Shown here: positions 1,973 to 17,122 of the stretch, one piece after another
Layout of the letters: the number at the start of each line of letters is the position of its first letter
Numbering within the stretch: position 1 is the stretch's first letter
Virus record (IMG/VR): IMGVR_UViG_3300005805_000438
Coordinates: 1 to 25,513 of that record
Direction: 5' to 3' (one strand)
DNA from: a virus
Taxonomy: Duplodnaviria; Caudoviricetes
DNA length: 25,513 nucleotides
Program-made: the position numbers and the translations under genes
Notes under the pieces: generated by a model
What the model saw: only the letters and a program-made list of their open reading frames with translations
Database searches by the model: none
What the model was told of the DNA's origin: nothing

Positions 1973-3982
1973 ATGGATCAAAACGAGTTCTACGAGCCGA
2001 CAGAGAACGATAAAGAACTGACGGCATTCGTCGTAGACCACTGTGATCGCTGGCGTGATTACAGGAACACCAACTACCTTGATTCTTGGATGGAATACGA
2101 GCGTATCTTCCGTGGCGAATGGGCTGCTGAAGACAAGATTCGTGAATCCGAGCGCTCCAGAATCGTCACTCCCGCTACCCAACAAGCCGTTGAAACCCGC
2201 CATGCTGAGATCATGGAGGCAATCTTTGGCCAGGGCGAGTTCTTCGACATCGAAGATGACCTCAAAGATGTAAACGGCAATCCTCTAGATGTGTCTATGC
2301 TCAAGGCACAGCTAATGGAGGACTTCAAACAGGACAAGATTCGCAAATCCATCGACCAGATCGAGTTGATGGCAGAGATCTATGGCACTGGCATCGGTGA
2401 GATCATCGTCAAAACCGAGAAAATCTTTGAGCCCGCTACCCAACCTATTCCCGGACAAGCTCAAGCAGCCATCGGAGTAGTTGAAAAGAACAGGGTCGCC
2501 GTTAAGCTGATGCCTGTCAACCCTAAAAACTTCCTTTTTGACCCCAATGGCACATCGATTGATGACTGCATGGGCGTCGCAATCGAGAAGTATGTCTCTA
2601 TCCACAAGGTTGTGGAAGGCATTGAGAAGGGCATCTACCGCAAAGTCAACATCACTCCTACCTACGAGGACAGTGATCTTGAGCCTACACAGGAACCAAG
2701 CCAGTATCAGGACGAAAAAGTTGTCCTCCTGACCTACTATGGCCTAGTGCCTAAAGAATACCTCATGGAAGAGGATACGGAAACCGTAGAACTCTTCCCT
2801 GATGACTCTGCTGTTGAAGATTACACCAACATGGTCGAGGCAATCGTAGTCATTGCCAACGGGTCAATGCTTCTGAAGGCAGAAGAGAACCCGTACATGA
2901 TGAAAGACCGCCCTGTCATCTGCTATCAAGATGATACGGTGCCCAATCGTCTGCTTGGCAGGGGGACGGTTGAAAAATCCTACAACATGCAGAAGGCTAT
3001 TGACGCTCAAGTCCGTAGTCATCTGGACTCCCTGGCCCTGACAACTGCCCCAATGATGGGTATGGATGCTACTCGGCTACCAAGGGGCGCAAAATTTGAG
3101 GTCAAGCCCGGTAAAGCCTTTATGGTCAACGGGAACCCATCGGAAATCCTGTATCCCTTTAAGTTTGGTCAAAGCAGCCCTGAAAACCTGGCTACGGCTA
3201 AGGAATTTGAGCGTATGCTTCTTCAGGCAACTGGCACTTTGGATAGCCAAGGCATGGTCAGTCAGGCCGCTAGAGATGGCGCCGGTATGTCTATGGCCGT
3301 TGCAACGATCATTAAGAAGTACAAGAGGACTCTGGTTAACTTCCAAGAGGACTTTCTGATCCCTTTCATCCAGAAAGCCTCTTTCCGGTACATGCAGTTT
3401 GACCCAGAACGGTATCCGAGCGTTGATATGCGCTTCATTCCGACTGCAACTCTGGGCATCATTGCACGGGAATACGAACAACAGCAGTTTATTGGTCTAC
3501 TTCAGACCTTGGGTCCGAATACGCCTGTACTGCCGTTGATTTTGAAGGGAATTTTGAACAACTCTAGCCTGACCAACAGGTATGAGTTGATTGCAGCCCT
3601 TGATCAGATGAGTCAACCTGATCCGCAAGCCCAACAACTTGCTCAGGCTCAGCAACAGCTTGCTCTTCAGGCCGCACAAGCCCAGATTGCAGTGCAAACG
3701 ACTCAGGCAGAGCAGAACCGCGCAGAAGCACAAAAGCTGCTGACCGAGGCGCAACTGATGCCCGAGGAGATCAAGGCAAAAGTCCTGTCGGCATCGACAA
3801 AGAACCTTCCAAGCGCTGATGATGTAGCCTCAAAAGAGTTTGACAAACGAGTCAAGATTGCTGAGTTGATGCTCAAAGAAGAAGACATCAAGAATAAGAC
3901 CAAAATTGTCGAGCTTCAGATGGCTGACAAGGCTAATCAAAGCAAGAAAGATGAGGACTTCCTCAAGAGCATCGTTGGCTAA
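1973..3982 (+). CDS. Portal protein (P22-like, with Q/A-rich C-terminal coiled coil)
   Basis: 669 aa immediately after terL; YGTGI motif, acidic overall, long QAQQLAQAQQQ helical C-terminal barrel region. Confidence 0.88.
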   Translation: MDQNEFYEPTENDKELTAFVVDHCDRWRDYRNTNYLDSWMEYERIFRGEWAAEDKIRESERSRIVTPATQQAVETRHAEIMEAIFGQGEFFDIEDDLKDVNGNPLDVSMLKAQLMEDFKQDKIRKSIDQIELMAEIYGTGIGEIIVKTEKIFEPATQPIPGQAQAAIGVVEKNRVAVKLMPVNPKNFLFDPNGTSIDDCMGVAIEKYVSIHKVVEGIEKGIYRKVNITPTYEDSDLEPTQEPSQYQDEKVVLLTYYGLVPKEYLMEEDTETVELFPDDSAVEDYTNMVEAIVVIANGSMLLKAEENPYMMKDRPVICYQDDTVPNRLLGRGTVEKSYNMQKAIDAQVRSHLDSLALTTAPMMGMDATRLPRGAKFEVKPGKAFMVNGNPSEILYPFKFGQSSPENLATAKEFERMLLQATGTLDSQGMVSQAARDGAGMSMAVATIIKKYKRTLVNFQEDFLIPFIQKASFRYMQFDPERYPSVDMRFIPTATLGIIAREYEQQQFIGLLQTLGPNTPVLPLILKGILNNSSLTNRYELIAALDQMSQPDPQAQQLAQAQQQLALQAAQAQIAVQTTQAEQNRAEAQKLLTEAQLMPEEIKAKVLSASTKNLPSADDVASKEFDKRVKIAELMLKEEDIKNKTKIVELQMADKANQSKKDEDFLKSIVG

Positions 3983-3984
3983 TA

Positions 3985-4467
3985 ATGGATGCCAAAAAGA
4001 TTCTTCTTTCGGGTGCGTCTACTGATGCAAAGTTGTCTGCACTGGCAATTTTGCTCAGCAGGGAACTGCCTGATCTAAAAACTACTGTTGACAATGTACA
4101 GAAGCAGGTTGGGCCGAGAGGTGAACAGGGTCCAAAAGGAGATCCTGGCAAAGACGGTGTTGACGGGAAAGATGGAAAAGACGGCAAAGATGGAGTCAAT
4201 GGTAAAAATGGTGTAGATGGCAAAGATGGCTCTGATGGCATCTCAATTGTCAGCACCAACATTGATTTCGACGGCTCTTTGGTAATCAAGTTTTCCGATG
4301 GTCGAGTTGTTAACGTAGGCGAAGTAGTTGGCGAAAAAGGCGAACGAGGTCCACAAGGCGCGGCGGGTGTTTCTGGCGTAGATGGAGAGGCTTTTGCCAA
4401 TCTTGATGGTGGTACACCAGGTAGTATTTACGGTGGCACAACACCTATTGATGCCGGGGGAGTTTAA
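3985..4467 (+). CDS. Collagen-like (Gly-X-Y) virion appendage protein
   Basis: GPRGEQGPKGDPGKDGVDGKDGKDGKDG... and a second GEKGERGPQG run; TAATG coupling to the next gene. Confidence 0.85.
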   Translation: MDAKKILLSGASTDAKLSALAILLSRELPDLKTTVDNVQKQVGPRGEQGPKGDPGKDGVDGKDGKDGKDGVNGKNGVDGKDGSDGISIVSTNIDFDGSLVIKFSDGRVVNVGEVVGEKGERGPQGAAGVSGVDGEAFANLDGGTPGSIYGGTTPIDAGGV

Positions 4468-6101
4468 TGGCTATCCAGATACAAATTCGTAGGGGCACTT
4501 CATCGGAATGGAGTACATCCAATCCCATTTTGGCGCAGGGAGAGGTTGGCTATGAGTTGAACACCGGGAAAGCCAAAGTTGGCGACGGCCTGACTGCGTG
4601 GAATTCGCTTGGGTACTTCAACCCAAACAATTCTGTGACATCTGTTGCGATGACAACGCCTACTGGCCTACAAGTCAGTGGCAGTCCTATCACAACATCG
4701 GGCACTTTGGCATTGACCTATGCCTCTGGTTACTCAATTCCAACTACGTCCAGTCAAACAAACTGGGATACTGCTTACTCTGAGCGCCGTCAATGGGATG
4801 GCGGATCAACCAACCTAGTCGCTTCTACTGGCCGCACATCTCTTGGTGCTACCACTCTTGGATCTAATCTTTTCACAATCACAGATCCAGGGGCAATCAC
4901 ATTTCCCCGTTTTAATGCTGACAACACTGTTAGCGCTTTAACAGCATCATCGTTCAGAACGGCCATTGGCGCTGGTACTGGTGATGGCACTGTTACATCT
5001 GTTGGAGCAACATCTCCAGTTGCATCTTCTGGTGGAGCAACACCAACAATCAGTCTGTCTTCTGGATATGGAGACACGCAAAATCCATACGCTAGTAAGA
5101 CCGCCAACTTCTTTTTAGCAGCACCAGATGGCTCTGCTGGCGCTCCAACTTTCAGAGCTATTGTTGCCGCTGATGTCCCGACACTGAATCAAAACACTAC
5201 TGGTACTGCCAGCAATGTTACAGGCACTGTGGCAATTGCCAATGGTGGTACGGGACAGACCACACAACAAACAGCATTGAATGCGCTAGCCGGGGCTACG
5301 ACATCGGCCCAGTTCCTGCGAGGCAACGGCACAAATGTATTGATGTCTGCGATTCAGGCATCTGACGTACCGACCTTGAATCAAAACACGACTGGTACCG
5401 CAAGCAACGTTACTGGAGTTGTTGCCATTGCAAACGGTGGATCTGGGCAAACCACAGCACAGTCTGCAATGAATACGTTTGCTGGCGCGGTTACGTCAGG
5501 ATCGTATCTGCGCGGTAATGGAACAAACGTGGTTATGTCCACGATCCAGGCGGCAGACGTTCCGACGCTCAATCAGAACACTACTGGCACTGCCTCCAAT
5601 GTGACCGGAACCGTAGCGATTGCTAATGGTGGAACTGGCCAGACAACTGCTAGTGCCGCTTTCAATGCTCTATCTCCTGTAACAACAACTGGAGATCTGA
5701 TAATTGGCAATGGCACGAACAGTGCAACCCGTCTTCCTATTGGCGCAAACACCTATGTGTTGACATCCAATGGAACAACTGCTTCATGGGCAGCGCCAAG
5801 TGGCGGTGGAAGTGGAACGGTAACAAGTGTTGCCGCAACAGTTCCATCGTTCTTGTCAGTATCTGGATCTCCGATCACTACAAGCGGAACACTGGCAATC
5901 TCTCTTGCATCAACACCATCAAATGGGCAGTTGTTGATTGGTAATGGAACGGGGTTTTCCTATGCAACCCTTACTGCTGGAAGTAACATCACGATTACAA
6001 ATTCAGCGGGTGGCATCACTATCGCATCAACTGGCGGCGGCGGTGGTGGAAGCACTGGCCCTAAAGCTAAACTTGACACATGGATGATTGGAGCAATGTA
6101 A
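4467..6101 (+). CDS. Fibre protein with Mtd N-terminal-like domain and internal 64-aa repeats
   Basis: N-terminus QIQIRRGTSSEW...NPILAQGEVGYE..TGKAKVGDG..AWNSL matches the major-tropism-determinant N-terminal motif; G/T/S/A-rich; ANGGTG repeats. Confidence 0.85.
   Translation: MAIQIQIRRGTSSEWSTSNPILAQGEVGYELNTGKAKVGDGLTAWNSLGYFNPNNSVTSVAMTTPTGLQVSGSPITTSGTLALTYASGYSIPTTSSQTNWDTAYSERRQWDGGSTNLVASTGRTSLGATTLGSNLFTITDPGAITFPRFNADNTVSALTASSFRTAIGAGTGDGTVTSVGATSPVASSGGATPTISLSSGYGDTQNPYASKTANFFLAAPDGSAGAPTFRAIVAADVPTLNQNTTGTASNVTGTVAIANGGTGQTTQQTALNALAGATTSAQFLRGNGTNVLMSAIQASDVPTLNQNTTGTASNVTGVVAIANGGSGQTTAQSAMNTFAGAVTSGSYLRGNGTNVVMSTIQAADVPTLNQNTTGTASNVTGTVAIANGGTGQTTASAAFNALSPVTTTGDLIIGNGTNSATRLPIGANTYVLTSNGTTASWAAPSGGGSGTVTSVAATVPSFLSVSGSPITTSGTLAISLASTPSNGQLLIGNGTGFSYATLTAGSNITITNSAGGITIASTGGGGGGSTGPKAKLDTWMIGAM
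5172..5650 (+). repeat. Tandem 192-nt (64-aa) repeats in fibre gene, third copy partial
   Basis: DVPTLNQNTTGTASNVTG starts at 5172, 5364 and 5556; this 18-aa core is identical in protein but synonymously diverged in DNA. Confidence 0.92.
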
Positions 6102-12937: not shown

Positions 12938-13269
12938 GGCCAGTCTCAGTTGGCTTTGAACCCACAGCAGCGGTACTGACAACAGTCTATACCGTACCAA
13001 CGGGGTACTATGCCAAAATGAATCTGATGTACATCCACAACGCTGGTAGTGGATCAAAGTACATCACGGTTCAATGGATTGATAGCAGCGCCTCTGCTAC
13101 TCATGAGATCCTAAATCAATACACCATGAACGCCAAAGAGTACCTTCAATTCAACGGAGGTGCTTACATTGCTCTTGAAGAAGGCGATCAGATCAAAATA
13201 GAGACTGAATCAGGGAGCGTATTTACGTTCATTGCAACCTTTGAAGAAACAGGATTGACACGGCAATGA
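12934..13269 (+). CDS. Small beta-sandwich virion-associated protein
   Basis: GTG start with GAGG RBS; TTVYTVP...LEEGDQI pattern; ATGA overlap with the adaptor gene. Confidence 0.75.
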   Translation: MRPVSVGFEPTAAVLTTVYTVPTGYYAKMNLMYIHNAGSGSKYITVQWIDSSASATHEILNQYTMNAKEYLQFNGGAYIALEEGDQIKIETESGSVFTFIATFEETGLTRQ

Positions 13270-13913
13270 CCTACTTAGAACTCATCAATGACGTGTTGAT
13301 CCGGTTGCGCGAGTCTACCGTTTCAACCAACAATGAAACCTCGTACTCCAGTCTGATCGGCAAGTTTGTTAACGATGCCAAGCGACAGATTGAAGATGCG
13401 TATGCTTGGAACGTACTAGGCCAAACGCTGACCATTACCACTGTTGCTGCCACATACATTTACTCCATGACTGGTGCTGGACAAAAGTTCCAGGTCATGG
13501 ATGCTATCAATGTGACCTCCAACGTTGGTCTACGCAACATCAGTTTTGTAGAGATGAATCGTCTACAGAACTTTACAACTCCTATCTCTGGCATCCCAGA
13601 GGCTTACGCATTTGATGGCGTTGATGGCAACGGAGACACTAAAGTTGTGCTGTATGCGCGTCCTGACAATGTGTATTCGATCCAATTTTCACTGACTGTA
13701 CCGCAAGCCACACTCGCGGCTGACAGCACCTCAGTTTTGGTTCCTGATGTGCTGGTTGTTCAAAATGCCTATGCCCGTGCGTTGGTTGAGCGCGGGGAAG
13801 ATGGTGGTCTTGCGTCTTCAGAGGCTTACGCTTTGTATCGGACGATGTTGGCAGACTACATCGCTCTTGAGAGCACTCGTTATCCAGAAAACCAAGAGTT
13901 CGTTGCTATATGA
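13266..13913 (+). CDS. Tail adaptor / tail tubular protein A-like
   Basis: MTYLELINDVLIRLRE...FVNDAKRQIE.AY.W N-terminus; size and position before the nozzle gene. Confidence 0.8.
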   Translation: MTYLELINDVLIRLRESTVSTNNETSYSSLIGKFVNDAKRQIEDAYAWNVLGQTLTITTVAATYIYSMTGAGQKFQVMDAINVTSNVGLRNISFVEMNRLQNFTTPISGIPEAYAFDGVDGNGDTKVVLYARPDNVYSIQFSLTVPQATLAADSTSVLVPDVLVVQNAYARALVERGEDGGLASSEAYALYRTMLADYIALESTRYPENQEFVAI

Positions 13914-14407
13914 GCGAAGTACTCCAGATCGCCAGTATTTCAGCGCCAGGATTTTTTGGCCTGCAAAGTGTTGGCTCGTCTGTACTTCAATGCTCTCATT
14001 GCAAACAAAGTAAACCAGCAAATCAGTTCCCTAAAGCCAACAATCGTGTTCGTGGCTTCGCCTGGATATGTAAGCAATGTAAAAAAGAAAAGTTGCAAAA
14101 GAAAAAAGCATCTATGTCAAAAGATGACTGGATGCTCTTGAATAGGAAGTACTGGCTTAAATCGCAGTACAACTTGTCAATTGAAGATTACAACAAAAAA
14201 CTTGTAGAACAAAGTCATAGGTGTGCGATCTGTGGATGTGATGAAACAGAGGCTTTTAAGTCATTGCTGTTCGTAGATCATTGCCATAAAACTCAAAAAG
14301 TTAGAGGCCTTTTGTGTCATCATTGCAACACGGCACTTGGCAAATTTAGAGATTCCAAAGAAATCCTAAATCAAGCCATTACTTATTTGGATCAGCACAA
14401 TGGCTGA
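13910..14407 (+). CDS. Endonuclease VII-family (His-Me finger) homing endonuclease fused to the first 18 aa of the nozzle gene
   Basis: N-terminal CSHC...CKQC zinc site, YNLSIEDY, CAICG...VDHCHKTQKVRGLLCHHCNTALG endo VII signature; N-terminus MSEVLQIASISAPGFFGL duplicates the nozzle N-terminus. Confidence 0.9.
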   Translation: MSEVLQIASISAPGFFGLQSVGSSVLQCSHCKQSKPANQFPKANNRVRGFAWICKQCKKEKLQKKKASMSKDDWMLLNRKYWLKSQYNLSIEDYNKKLVEQSHRCAICGCDETEAFKSLLFVDHCHKTQKVRGLLCHHCNTALGKFRDSKEILNQAITYLDQHNG

Positions 14408-14453
14408 AGTTCTTCAAATTACCAGCATTTCCGCTCCAGGATTTACTGGATTG
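13964..14453 (+). mobile_element. 490-nt free-standing homing endonuclease insertion carrying a recoded replacement 5' end of the host gene
   Basis: Bounded by imperfect direct repeats 13910-13963 and 14400-14453 (15/18 aa, 39/54 nt identical); AT-rich (sampled 60-nt lines 32-38% GC versus 50% in the upstream gene). Confidence 0.8.
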
Positions 14454-15959
14454 AATACGCAAGACTCGCCTCTTGATTTGGCGTCTGGCTTTGCTCTTGT
14501 TGCAACCAATTGCGTGATTGACCAGTATGGAAGAATTGGCTCGCGTAAGGGCTGGTCCAAGGTCAATTCGTCTTCTGGGAACTTGGGAGCCAATACTGTT
14601 GGTGTGATTCATGAGCTTGTCCAAGCTGATGGCACTCTTACAGTCCTGTTCGCTGGCAACAACAAGCTGTTTTTTCTCAATGGCTCTAATGCGGTTGTGG
14701 AGTTGACCTACGGGGGGGGTGGATCTGCTCCTACGATTACTGCCAACAACTGGTCTTGTGCCTCTCTAAACGGGATCACCTATTTCTTCCAGACTGGTCA
14801 TGATCCACTGATTTTTGACCCAGCCGTTAGTACGACTACTTACAGGCGCGTCAGTGAGAAGACGGGCTATGTGGCGACTGTTCCAAGCGCGAACATAGCG
14901 CTGTCTGCATTTGGTCGGCTATGGGTTGCCAACACATCGACCATCAAGAACACGGTCTACTTCTCTGACCTGTTGTCCGGTCATGTCTGGTCTACTGGCA
15001 CTGCTGGATCGCTTAATGTTGATCGAGTGTGGCCTAACGGACCTGATGAGATCCAAGGTCTTGCTGCTCACAATGGCTTCCTGATCATCTTTGGCAAGAG
15101 GCAAATTCTTGTTTACCAAGACGCCACCACGCCATCTACGATGTCTCTAAGTGACACTGTGGGTGGCATTGGGTGCATTGCTCGGGACTCAATTCAGACC
15201 ACTGGTAAAGATGTTCTGTTCTTATCCAACTCTGGTGTGCGCTCGTTTGCCAGAACAATCATTGAAAAGTCTGCGCCTCTTGGAGATCTGTCCAAAAACG
15301 TTCGCAATGACTTGATGGACATTGTGGCAGGAGAAACACTAGCCAACATCAAGTCTGTCTACTCTGAGAAAGAGGCGTTCTATCTGCTGACTCTTCCTTC
15401 TGTGGATGAGGTTTATTGCTTTGACACTCGCGGGCAGTTGCAAGATGGCTCGTTCAGAGTCACCGTGTGGGATTCTATTGAGCCAACAGCACTTCTATCT
15501 CGCAGGAATGGCGATGTTCTGATTGGCAAAATTGGTTACATCGGAAAGTACGGCACCTATCAGGACGATACTTCATCCTATCGGATGCTGTACTACACCA
15601 ACCATGCTGACCTTGGCAATGCAAACGTCACCTCGATCCTCAAGAGGCTCAAGACTACGGTAATTGGCGGCACGAATCAGGTTCTCACGATGAAGTGGGC
15701 CTTTGACCTGATCACTAACTATCAATCTGCCAACTCTGTGATCCCAACTCAAGGGATTTCTGAGTACGGTATCGCTGAGTATGGAGCCAATGGCTCTCCG
15801 GTGGCTTACTACTCAGAAGGCATCTTGATCCAAGTGCTATCAGTTCCCGCCTCTGGTAGCGGCAAGATTGTTCAGACTGGCTATGAGTCAGACATCAATG
15901 GATCTGCGCTGTCAATCCAAAGAATTGAGATTCAGTATAAAGATGGGAAACTATCATGA
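14400..15959 (+). CDS. Tail nozzle / tail tubular protein B-like (beta-propeller)
   Basis: 519 aa, beta-rich, after the adaptor; GRLWVA, VYFSD, GIGCIARDSI, VLFLSNSGVRS motifs; start overlaps the endonuclease stop by 8 nt. Confidence 0.8.
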   Translation: MAEVLQITSISAPGFTGLNTQDSPLDLASGFALVATNCVIDQYGRIGSRKGWSKVNSSSGNLGANTVGVIHELVQADGTLTVLFAGNNKLFFLNGSNAVVELTYGGGGSAPTITANNWSCASLNGITYFFQTGHDPLIFDPAVSTTTYRRVSEKTGYVATVPSANIALSAFGRLWVANTSTIKNTVYFSDLLSGHVWSTGTAGSLNVDRVWPNGPDEIQGLAAHNGFLIIFGKRQILVYQDATTPSTMSLSDTVGGIGCIARDSIQTTGKDVLFLSNSGVRSFARTIIEKSAPLGDLSKNVRNDLMDIVAGETLANIKSVYSEKEAFYLLTLPSVDEVYCFDTRGQLQDGSFRVTVWDSIEPTALLSRRNGDVLIGKIGYIGKYGTYQDDTSSYRMLYYTNHADLGNANVTSILKRLKTTVIGGTNQVLTMKWAFDLITNYQSANSVIPTQGISEYGIAEYGANGSPVAYYSEGILIQVLSVPASGSGKIVQTGYESDINGSALSIQRIEIQYKDGKLS

Positions 15960-17122
15960 CAAATTACGTTAAGAGTACAAATTTCGCTACCAAAGATGCG
16001 CTTGCATCTGGCAATCCGCTGAAGATTGTCAAGGGCGCAGAGATTGACACTGAGTTCAACAACATTGCTACGGCTGTTGCGACGAAGGCTGACTTAAACT
16101 CGCCAACTTTGGTCACACCGGCCCTTGGAACGCCTTCATCTGGTACGCTGACCAATTGCACATCACTCCCAATTGATGGTGGCACCACTGGAACTTTGCC
16201 TGTTGCTCGCGGTGGTACTGGCGTCACTACATCCACTGGGTCGGGCAACAATGTGCTATCTACTAGCCCAACACTGGTTACGCCAATACTTGGGACGCCA
16301 ACGTCTGGGACTTTAAGCAATTGCACATCACTGCCCATTGACGGAGGTACTACAGGTACGCTTCCGGTTGCTCGTGGCGGCACTGGAGTTACCACATCTA
16401 CGGGTAGCGGCAATGTTGTTCTGTCAACAAGCCCAACTTTGGTTACGCCCATTCTCGGTACGCCGACGTCAGGGACGCTTACTAACTGCACTGGTCTCCC
16501 CATGACGACGGGCGTGACCGGAACACTGCCTGTTGCCAACGGAGGCACGGGTGTCACAACTTCTACTGGATCTGGGTCTACTGTATTGAGTAACACCCCA
16601 ACCATAGCAAGTCCAACTTTTACAGGTACTCCCGCAGCGCCTACGGCATCTTCAGGGACTAATACGACTCAATTGGCAACAACTGCTTTTGTGCAAACCG
16701 CGTTGCAAGCGATATATCCTGTAGGCTCTGTTTACATCAATGCGACAAATGCAACTAATCCCGGCACGTTGCTTGGCTTCGGCACTTGGGCAGCGTTCGG
16801 TGCTGGCCGAGTCCCTGTTGGTTTTAATGCTAGCGACCCACTGTTTGATACTGCTGAAGAAACAGGCGGTTCTGCCGACGCCGTAGTGGTCAGCCACACG
16901 CATACGGCAACTGTTACAGACCCAGGCCACTCGCATGGGCTGCCTATTCAGAATGACTATGGTTACCCAGTTGGTTCTGGCGGTGCTCGTCAGGGTACTG
17001 GAACTACTACTGATTCAGCTACTACGGGTATCAGTGTGGCTATCAGCACCGCCGGCTCTTCCGGCACCAATGCCAACTACCAGCCTTATATAACCGTGTA
17101 CATGTGGAAACGGACTGCATGA
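15956..17122 (+). CDS. Tail fibre with 55-aa repeats and T4 gp10-like C-terminal domain
   Basis: N-terminal anchor EIDTEFNNIATAV, three repeats, fibre motif SPTFTGTPAAPT...TTQLATTAFV, IYPVGSVY...WAAFGAGRVPVG...QPYITVYMWKRTA, and HTH/HSH metal motifs. Confidence 0.85.
   Translation: MTNYVKSTNFATKDALASGNPLKIVKGAEIDTEFNNIATAVATKADLNSPTLVTPALGTPSSGTLTNCTSLPIDGGTTGTLPVARGGTGVTTSTGSGNNVLSTSPTLVTPILGTPTSGTLSNCTSLPIDGGTTGTLPVARGGTGVTTSTGSGNVVLSTSPTLVTPILGTPTSGTLTNCTGLPMTTGVTGTLPVANGGTGVTTSTGSGSTVLSNTPTIASPTFTGTPAAPTASSGTNTTQLATTAFVQTALQAIYPVGSVYINATNATNPGTLLGFGTWAAFGAGRVPVGFNASDPLFDTAEETGGSADAVVVSHTHTATVTDPGHSHGLPIQNDYGYPVGSGGARQGTGTTTDSATTGISVAISTAGSSGTNANYQPYITVYMWKRTA
16100..16594 (+). repeat. 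Three tandem 165-nt (55-aa) repeats
   Basis: SPTLVTP.LGTP.SGTL.NCT.LP...GTLPVA.GGTGVTTSTGSG units start at 16100, 16265 and 16430. Confidence 0.93.

Follow-up and report, generated by a model that had tools for sequence, protein, structure and literature searches.

Organization of the Locus

The window, the whole 25,513-nt stretch of viral DNA that was analysed, comes from a short-tailed phage and spans its region for packaging and virion genes, with terminase, portal, capsid, SU10-type adaptor, tail and lysozyme genes. Three overlapping genes on the plus strand are the subject of this study. The head-tail adaptor gene (13266..13913; PF24175, SU10_adaptor, E 1e-13) ends in a stop codon that overlaps the ATG of the next ORF (ATGA). 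This second ORF (13910..14407, 165 aa) encodes a protein with an N-terminal CxxC..CxxC arrangement and a C-terminal endonuclease VII motif (PF02945, E 3.7e-22), and its stop codon overlaps by 8 nt the start of a 519-aa nozzle gene, or P22 gp10-like tail hub gene (14400..15959). A reading made earlier from the sequence alone (the sequence-only reading) had claimed that translational coupling is restored at the second start, and the two overlaps bear this out. A GGA at 14389..14391, inside the nuclease ORF and 9–11 nt before the second start, may act as a ribosome-binding site; GGA or AGG at −16..−6 is present in 29/30 upstream sequences of nozzle alleles occupied by a nuclease versus 81/130 of empty ones. 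Promoters and terminators were sought in 13700–14600, and none was found.

The nuclease ORF and the nozzle gene begin alike. The first 18 codons of the former (13910..13963, hereafter the stub) and of the latter (14400..14453, hereafter the spare) agree at 15/18 residues and 39/54 nt (72%), use different synonymous codons at nine of the identical residues and share no exact match longer than 9 nt (at 13946 and 14436). The duplicate did not arise by chance, since the next best match to this 18-mer among the 50,914 six-frame 18-mers of the window is 7/18. The starts lie 490 nt apart (490 mod 3 = 1, a frame shift by 1), and deletion of these 490 nt in silico yields a single stop-free nozzle ORF. 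The core between the copies (13964–14399) has a GC content of 38%, against 48–49% for the adaptor and nozzle genes. Every figure among these that the sequence-only reading had given was reproduced when recomputed, and the core is AT-rich as it had stated.

The gene identities proposed earlier also stand. The predicted structure of the nozzle protein matches P22 gp10 (E 1.7e-16, TM 0.63), with the Pa223 tail as the best match (TM 0.72); the gene is assigned to phrog_578, head closure (E 1.6e-6), and PF11134 was found on 16% of a near cluster. The identity came from the fold search, as a PDB sequence search with the nozzle alignment returned designed propellers only. From its family, the nozzle gene would be essential. 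The structure model has a strand at residues 6–11, which suggests that the first codons are not dispensable. Among cultured phages, no close relative of the nozzle protein was found, only two records at 24–25% identity.

Several other features of the region were observed. Directly after the portal gene, apart from the tail genes, lie a gene for a collagen-repeat protein (3985–4467) and one for a protein with a major-tropism-determinant N-terminal domain (4467–6101). In the tail gene at 15956–17122, a stretch of roughly 60 residues is repeated internally about three times; in relatives, these repeats are often missing. In one related locus (L074:3001-4809), the nozzle gene carries an in-frame insertion of about 85 codons near the C-terminus.

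The Nuclease

The PF02945 match spans residues 82–161 of 165, that is, the C-terminal half. Across 43 homologues, D123, H124, H126, R132 and N140 are invariant, and so are all eight cysteines of the four CxxC pairs, including C105, C108, C136 and C139. A central DHxH between the cysteine pairs CX2-4C and CX2C is the signature of the endonuclease VII motif, and the spacing of D123/H124/R132/N140 equals that of D101/H102/R110/N118 in F-CphI. In a PDB sequence search, the site-specific enzyme Hpy99I matched best (E 1.2e-13), and T4 endonuclease VII gave a weaker match (E 1.8e-7). A fold search returned nothing at E 0.001 or better, the best match again being Hpy99I (E 3.5e-3, TM 0.22). Residues 1–20 of the nuclease model have a pLDDT below 50, so that the stub is without confident structure. 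The dN/dS ratio is 0.02–0.14 in the six measurable pairs out of 14 (seven are saturated and one is identical); at the level of the reading frame and its substitutions, the nuclease is shown to be intact and under purifying selection. The nuclease does not conform to a resolvase of the T4 endonuclease VII type: the motif is C-terminal, the likeness to gp49 is partial (profile positions 70–127 only, against gp49 residues 10–71), and the gene is missing from most relatives.

Empty and Occupied Alleles

The existence of empty alleles had been predicted, and they proved to be the rule. The best 80 nozzle loci comprise 73 empty and four occupied alleles and three without flank, while a motif scan covering 3/64 parts of the collection yielded 120 loci, of which 117 are empty, none is occupied, two are otherwise classed and one is unclassified. 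Eight loci were found in the genome collection, with the nuclease in none of them. When related nucleases were collected instead, 28 distinct ORFs were obtained (loci L373-L413); 27 stand directly before a nozzle gene and one at a contig end. On a FastTree nozzle tree of 149 rows, 20 of them occupied, occupancy requires at least 12 state changes. Such patchy presence among close relatives at a fixed intergenic position is a mark of free-standing homing endonucleases. In 8/13 pairs, elements with an identity of 96% or more are carried by nozzle alleles that are at most 91% alike, versus 1/13 control pairs of empty alleles; the pairs overlap. The nuclease element is mobile.

Origin of the Two Copies and Edges of the Foreign Block

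Which copy belongs to the host can be read from close pairs of occupied and empty alleles. In four of these (L082/L011, L093/L017, L085/L059 and L290/L260), the last 150 nt of the adaptor gene are 91–99% identical. The stub is 90–98% identical to the start of the empty allele, whereas the spare, of the same length, is only 62–73% identical, and the last mismatch of the foreign block falls at nt 51–53 of the nozzle gene, after which near identity resumes. This agrees with the earlier proposal that the upstream copy is the host's own start, borrowed by the nuclease. By analogy, the stub of the window (13910..13963) would be the host's original nozzle codons 1–18, now the N-terminus of the nuclease, and the element would be the 490 nt at 13964..14453, made up of a linker, the nuclease core and the replacement codons 1–18. 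The best empty relative of the window reaches 0.83, and the edges of its element are therefore taken from relatives.

A wider comparison started from 38 distinct occupied alleles, 14 of which have an empty neighbour at 0.90 or more over nozzle nt 61–210. In 14/14 pairs, identity is 0.59–0.72 over nt 1–54 and 0.85–1.00 over nt 55–108; these pairs represent about eight element lineages rather than 14 independent events. Among empty alleles with such a neighbour, 1/74 is at 0.75 or below over nt 1–54, the median being 0.94. To judge from this comparison of alleles, a diverged version of the target is co-inherited with the nuclease gene (14/14 vs. 1/74), as is expected of homing. The comparison also supports the claim that the element carries the downstream copy, the end of which lies at about codon 18/19. 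The foreign block ends at nozzle nt 48–57 in 12/14 pairs and at 60 and 84 in the other two. Eight of the 14 have no long stub and start at the host ATG or up to four codons in, yet the same 54 nt are replaced. As judged from these alignments, the block is shown to have a right edge fixed to within a few bases and a left edge that varies.

More distant nucleases (40–44% identity) also occupy the adaptor-nozzle junction, in L424, L425, L429 and L436. In L424 and L425, no foreign block was found at the nozzle start, which indicates that position alone does not produce the block. The target of these two may lie in the adaptor gene.

The Stub among Relatives

The long duplicate is not what defines the family: of the 28 related ORFs, 10 have a stub of 13–18 codons, 17 keep one to four host codons and replace the same 54 nt, and one is cut off. 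A tree of 71 rows, from which three of the first 52 matches had been left out as fragments or frameshifted, places the nucleases linked to a nozzle gene in one clade (63 rows, 97/97). The forms with a long stub are scattered over four places among the short ones, and the group of 12 that includes the window is supported at 100/97. A single stub clade is rejected by the AU test (p 3.8e-7; 47 rows, with the relative P0005 counted as a stub form and the group named after the first tree had been seen). Forms with the long duplicate make up four separate clades, and the family can do without it. As the tree is unrooted, repeated capture or repeated loss of the stub is possible.

Some members of the window's group keep 13 nozzle-like codons only, and within the group the first 13 codons track the host. 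Such host tracking would fit a renewal of these codons at each homing event. P0005 closely resembles the window's nuclease (80% over the core) but begins with 24 residues that are unlike the N-terminus of the nozzle protein; it may have moved to another gene, and a search for its genomic context found none.

Spelling of the Spare and Candidate Immunity Changes

It had been suggested from the sequence that the spare is specially recoded. Most of the comparisons speak against this. The 9/14 synonymous changes of the window are reached or exceeded by 165/804 empty pairs of like protein identity, and the values for L082 (6/13), L093 (5/9) and L089 (6/12) also lie inside the empty-pair range (means 0.48–0.55). 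L290 alone stands out, with 15/15 residues kept and 11/15 codons changed between stub and spare, above all 65 comparable pairs (maximum 0.67); against its nearest empty allele, 13/16 synonymous codons of its spare differ. The spare is A/T-rich at third positions (GC3 0.30 vs. 0.44). C is depleted in spares at nt 45 (1/23 vs. 86/163) and nt 51 (1/23 vs. 52/163), and this depletion may be explained by the A/T bias.

A single base that could confer immunity was sought, and none is common to all spares. Missense changes in a conserved motif would be better candidates. Thr16 is present in the window, L082 and L093 and in 2/163 distinct empty alleles, most of which have Phe or Tyr at this position, and Cys18 is present in L290, L408 and L410. 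A palindromic site was also tried and rejected: the best mean near the edge was 0.44 (centres 54–54.5) against a median of 0.24, and nt 99 scored higher (160 tested).

Two alleles without a nuclease, L004 and L005, are of host type over nt 1–24 and match the window's spare at 29/30 nt over nt 25–54, where their close relative L023 matches it at 19/30. They may be either excision products or conversions that left the nuclease gene behind. To judge from these chimeras, the spare can persist without the nuclease, and the earlier claim that it resists recombinational excision was not upheld. The one empty allele with a foreign start, L189, is at 0.59 to its neighbour L224 over nt 1–54 and matches the window's spare at 26/30 nt over nt 25–54. 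It is possibly another immune, nuclease-free allele.

Proposed Mechanism and Alternatives

The insert is best explained, with a probability of about 80%, as a homing element whose site-specific nuclease is predicted to cut the empty nozzle gene near codons 15–20 and which is copied in together with diverged codons 1–18. During a mixed infection, the nuclease would break the empty allele near these codons. The donor would serve as the template for repair of the right end of the break, immediately beyond the spare. The left end would pair wherever homology ends: at the host ATG or up to four codons in for most relatives, and 13–18 codons in for the stub forms, including the window. The stub would then lend the nuclease the host's coupled start, while the start of the spare, which overlaps the nuclease stop, would restore the nozzle protein. 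Neither junction would be cut, because the stub would lack the right-hand part of the site, and the left-hand part would be altered in the spare. Most of the spelling differences of the spare would have accumulated long ago within the limits set by the protein, and a few changes at codons 15–18 are candidate immunity sites.

Alternatively, selection may have recoded the spare throughout at synonymous sites, so that it would no longer be cut and could not recombine with the stub to excise the insert. The codon changes of L290 favour this explanation, which is unlikely on the whole given that the window, L082, L093 and L089 stay inside the empty-pair range. Relatives without a long stub are equally foreign over nt 1–54, so that the divergence needs no duplicate, and L004 and L005 keep the spare without any nuclease. 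In addition, the synonymous sites of the nuclease genes are saturated in 7/14 pairs, which means that age suffices for the divergence of the spare, and the data lean towards stub-form spares being no more diverged than stub-less spares of equal age.

It is more doubtful still that the nuclease serves the phage, as a packaging resolvase or competition factor carried in an ordinary cassette, with the duplicate as the scar of one illegitimate event. Endonuclease VII has been proposed as a resolvase in some podoviruses (PMC6083498), the purifying selection on the nuclease is strong, and phage genomes are mosaic anyway (1/13 empty control pairs). Yet the nuclease is missing from most close relatives, its C-terminal motif is the arrangement of the endonuclease clade as described in the same paper, and the long stubs fall in four places, with a single stub clade rejected as above. 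Nor would a right edge fixed within a conserved motif be expected of a passive cassette. It is very improbable that the nozzle protein is made from the first start through removal of the insert from the RNA or the protein, or through ribosomal bypass, even though it is this start whose coupling to the adaptor gene is seen in empty alleles. In line with the sequence-only reading, which had found no intron or intein, the insert is coding throughout, is closed by a stop codon and shifts the frame by 1, and in an Rfam search of 13500–15000 nothing reached the gathering score (two weak matches, E 0.86 and 0.95); moreover, stub-less relatives can use the second start only. An assembly chimera or collapsed repeat, named earlier as a point to check, is the least probable explanation and in effect already refuted. 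A second, separate assembly, L281, carries both junctions, with 58 mismatches in 1691 nt against the window and zero from stub nt 25 to nozzle nt 56. The layout also recurs in 10/28 distinct related ORFs, and the two copies are only 72% alike.

Comparison with Known Systems

A close likeness to the homing element proposed here is found in the mORF gene hybrids of fungal mitochondria, known from atp6 of Allomyces macrogynus and from atp6, atp9, cox2 and nad3 of Glomus (PMC3630166). In both cases, an intron-less endonuclease gene lies inside a gene that is kept whole by a foreign replacement terminus, and the native terminus is nearer to relatives than the replacement (91% vs. 63.5% for mORFs; 90–98% vs. 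62–73% here) (PMC3630166). In mORFs, the C-terminus is replaced, the enzymes are of the LAGLIDADG or GIY-YIG type, and the setting is organellar (PMC3630166). Here, the N-terminus is replaced, the native piece has become the start of the nuclease, the motif is that of endonuclease VII, and the target is a phage virion gene.

Free-standing intronless homing endonucleases of T4, such as MobE, SegG and SegF, form the second comparison; their genes can be promoterless and lie in an operon (PMC2988022). The mobE gene opens within the stop codon of the gene before it and has the gene behind it, nrdB, as its target, which is co-converted to the donor allele (PMC2988022). The stub-less relatives are laid out in this way. 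That review places the cuts of the T4 enzymes at distances of hundreds to thousands of bases from the gene; the term "duplicat" is not used in its available text (PMC2988022). Here, by contrast, the predicted site would be only some 50 nt away from the start; the foreign block ends 48–57 nt into the adjacent gene (12/14). In the stub forms, the insertion site and the probable cut site nearly coincide, as for an intron.

Among proteins with the endonuclease VII motif, those with a C-terminal motif mostly fall in the endonuclease clade and those with an N-terminal motif in the resolvase clade (PMC6083498). F-CphI (DHHRN) resembles the present nuclease in its C-terminal motif, its catalytic spacing and in having Hpy99I as the nearest solved structure, and self-cleavage by F-CphI is prevented by a group I intron close by in psbA (PMC6083498). 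There is no intron at the present locus, and the diverged gene start would prevent self-cleavage instead.

SXT/R391 integrative elements supply a new 5′ end to prfC, and the rescue copy of engineered home-and-rescue drives is recoded. Like the present element, SXT/R391 inserts into the 5′ end of a gene, in this case prfC; unlike it, SXT/R391 is integrase-mediated, excisable, about 100 kb long and without a homing nuclease (PMC4344509). Home-and-rescue drives pair a nuclease against an essential gene with a linked rescue copy, and the likeness is an analogy only, as these are synthetic CRISPR/Cas9 constructs in Drosophila rather than a phage element (PMC7968924). A survey of ICP1 nucleases, in its available text, uses "duplicat" for repeats inside nuclease genes only (PMC10448857). 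In the literature open without subscription, main texts only, no phage case with a retained and fused gene start was found. The present system is a variant of homing-endonuclease gene replacement with new features and not a new category. Of the earlier proposal of an alternative to introns and inteins, it stands that neither is present and that the gene is kept whole.

Distant endonuclease VII loci were also screened for a downstream start duplicate, which was found at 1/110 (L159) in a weak screen that considered the first downstream ATG only. At L159 (2932–2964, 3007–3504, 3562–3594), an endonuclease VII ORF precedes a DNA methyltransferase-like ORF (family assigned by eye from motifs), and about 11 first codons of the methyltransferase-like gene are duplicated upstream, where the copy stands apart from the nuclease ORF; there may be a third copy at 3505, in a decayed state. 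In Klebsiella phage VAC1, where an endonuclease lies between the internal virion genes A and B, no duplicate was seen by eye. More distant endonuclease VII ORFs (39–50% identity) occupy other junctions of the virion operon in related phages: nozzle/tail-fibre (L294-L296 and L414-L427, a range that includes L424 and L425, placed at the adaptor-nozzle junction), before terminase (L428, L431, L438), terminase/portal (L440, L444) and portal/scaffold (L448). Each may be a separate homing family.

Implications

From natural pairs of alleles alone, the likely target of a phage homing system could be mapped to about 20 bases. T4-type free-standing homing and the fungal mORF hybrids appear as the ends of one series, which can be ordered by the number of host codons kept: 1, 3–4, 13, 15–16 and 18. 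For the annotation of phage genomes, this means that the true start of a structural gene can open a nuclease ORF. Dozens of small (140–165 aa) candidate site-specific nucleases are added to a family with few characterised members.

A broader view can be put forward tentatively, at somewhat less than even odds: homing by replacement of a gene start may be a distinct, recurring strategy of phages, a third way beside introns and inteins of persisting within an essential gene, with the stub step having arisen in up to four lineages of one family. The stub would make a free-standing nuclease intron-like, and immune alleles such as L004 and L005 would close a cycle of drive and resistance. If this is true, stub forms have homology on both flanks at the break and could home without a match in the upstream gene. 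The nozzle locus, where invaded and empty alleles coexist with probably immune ones, may serve as a natural model for how an essential gene resists a gene drive.
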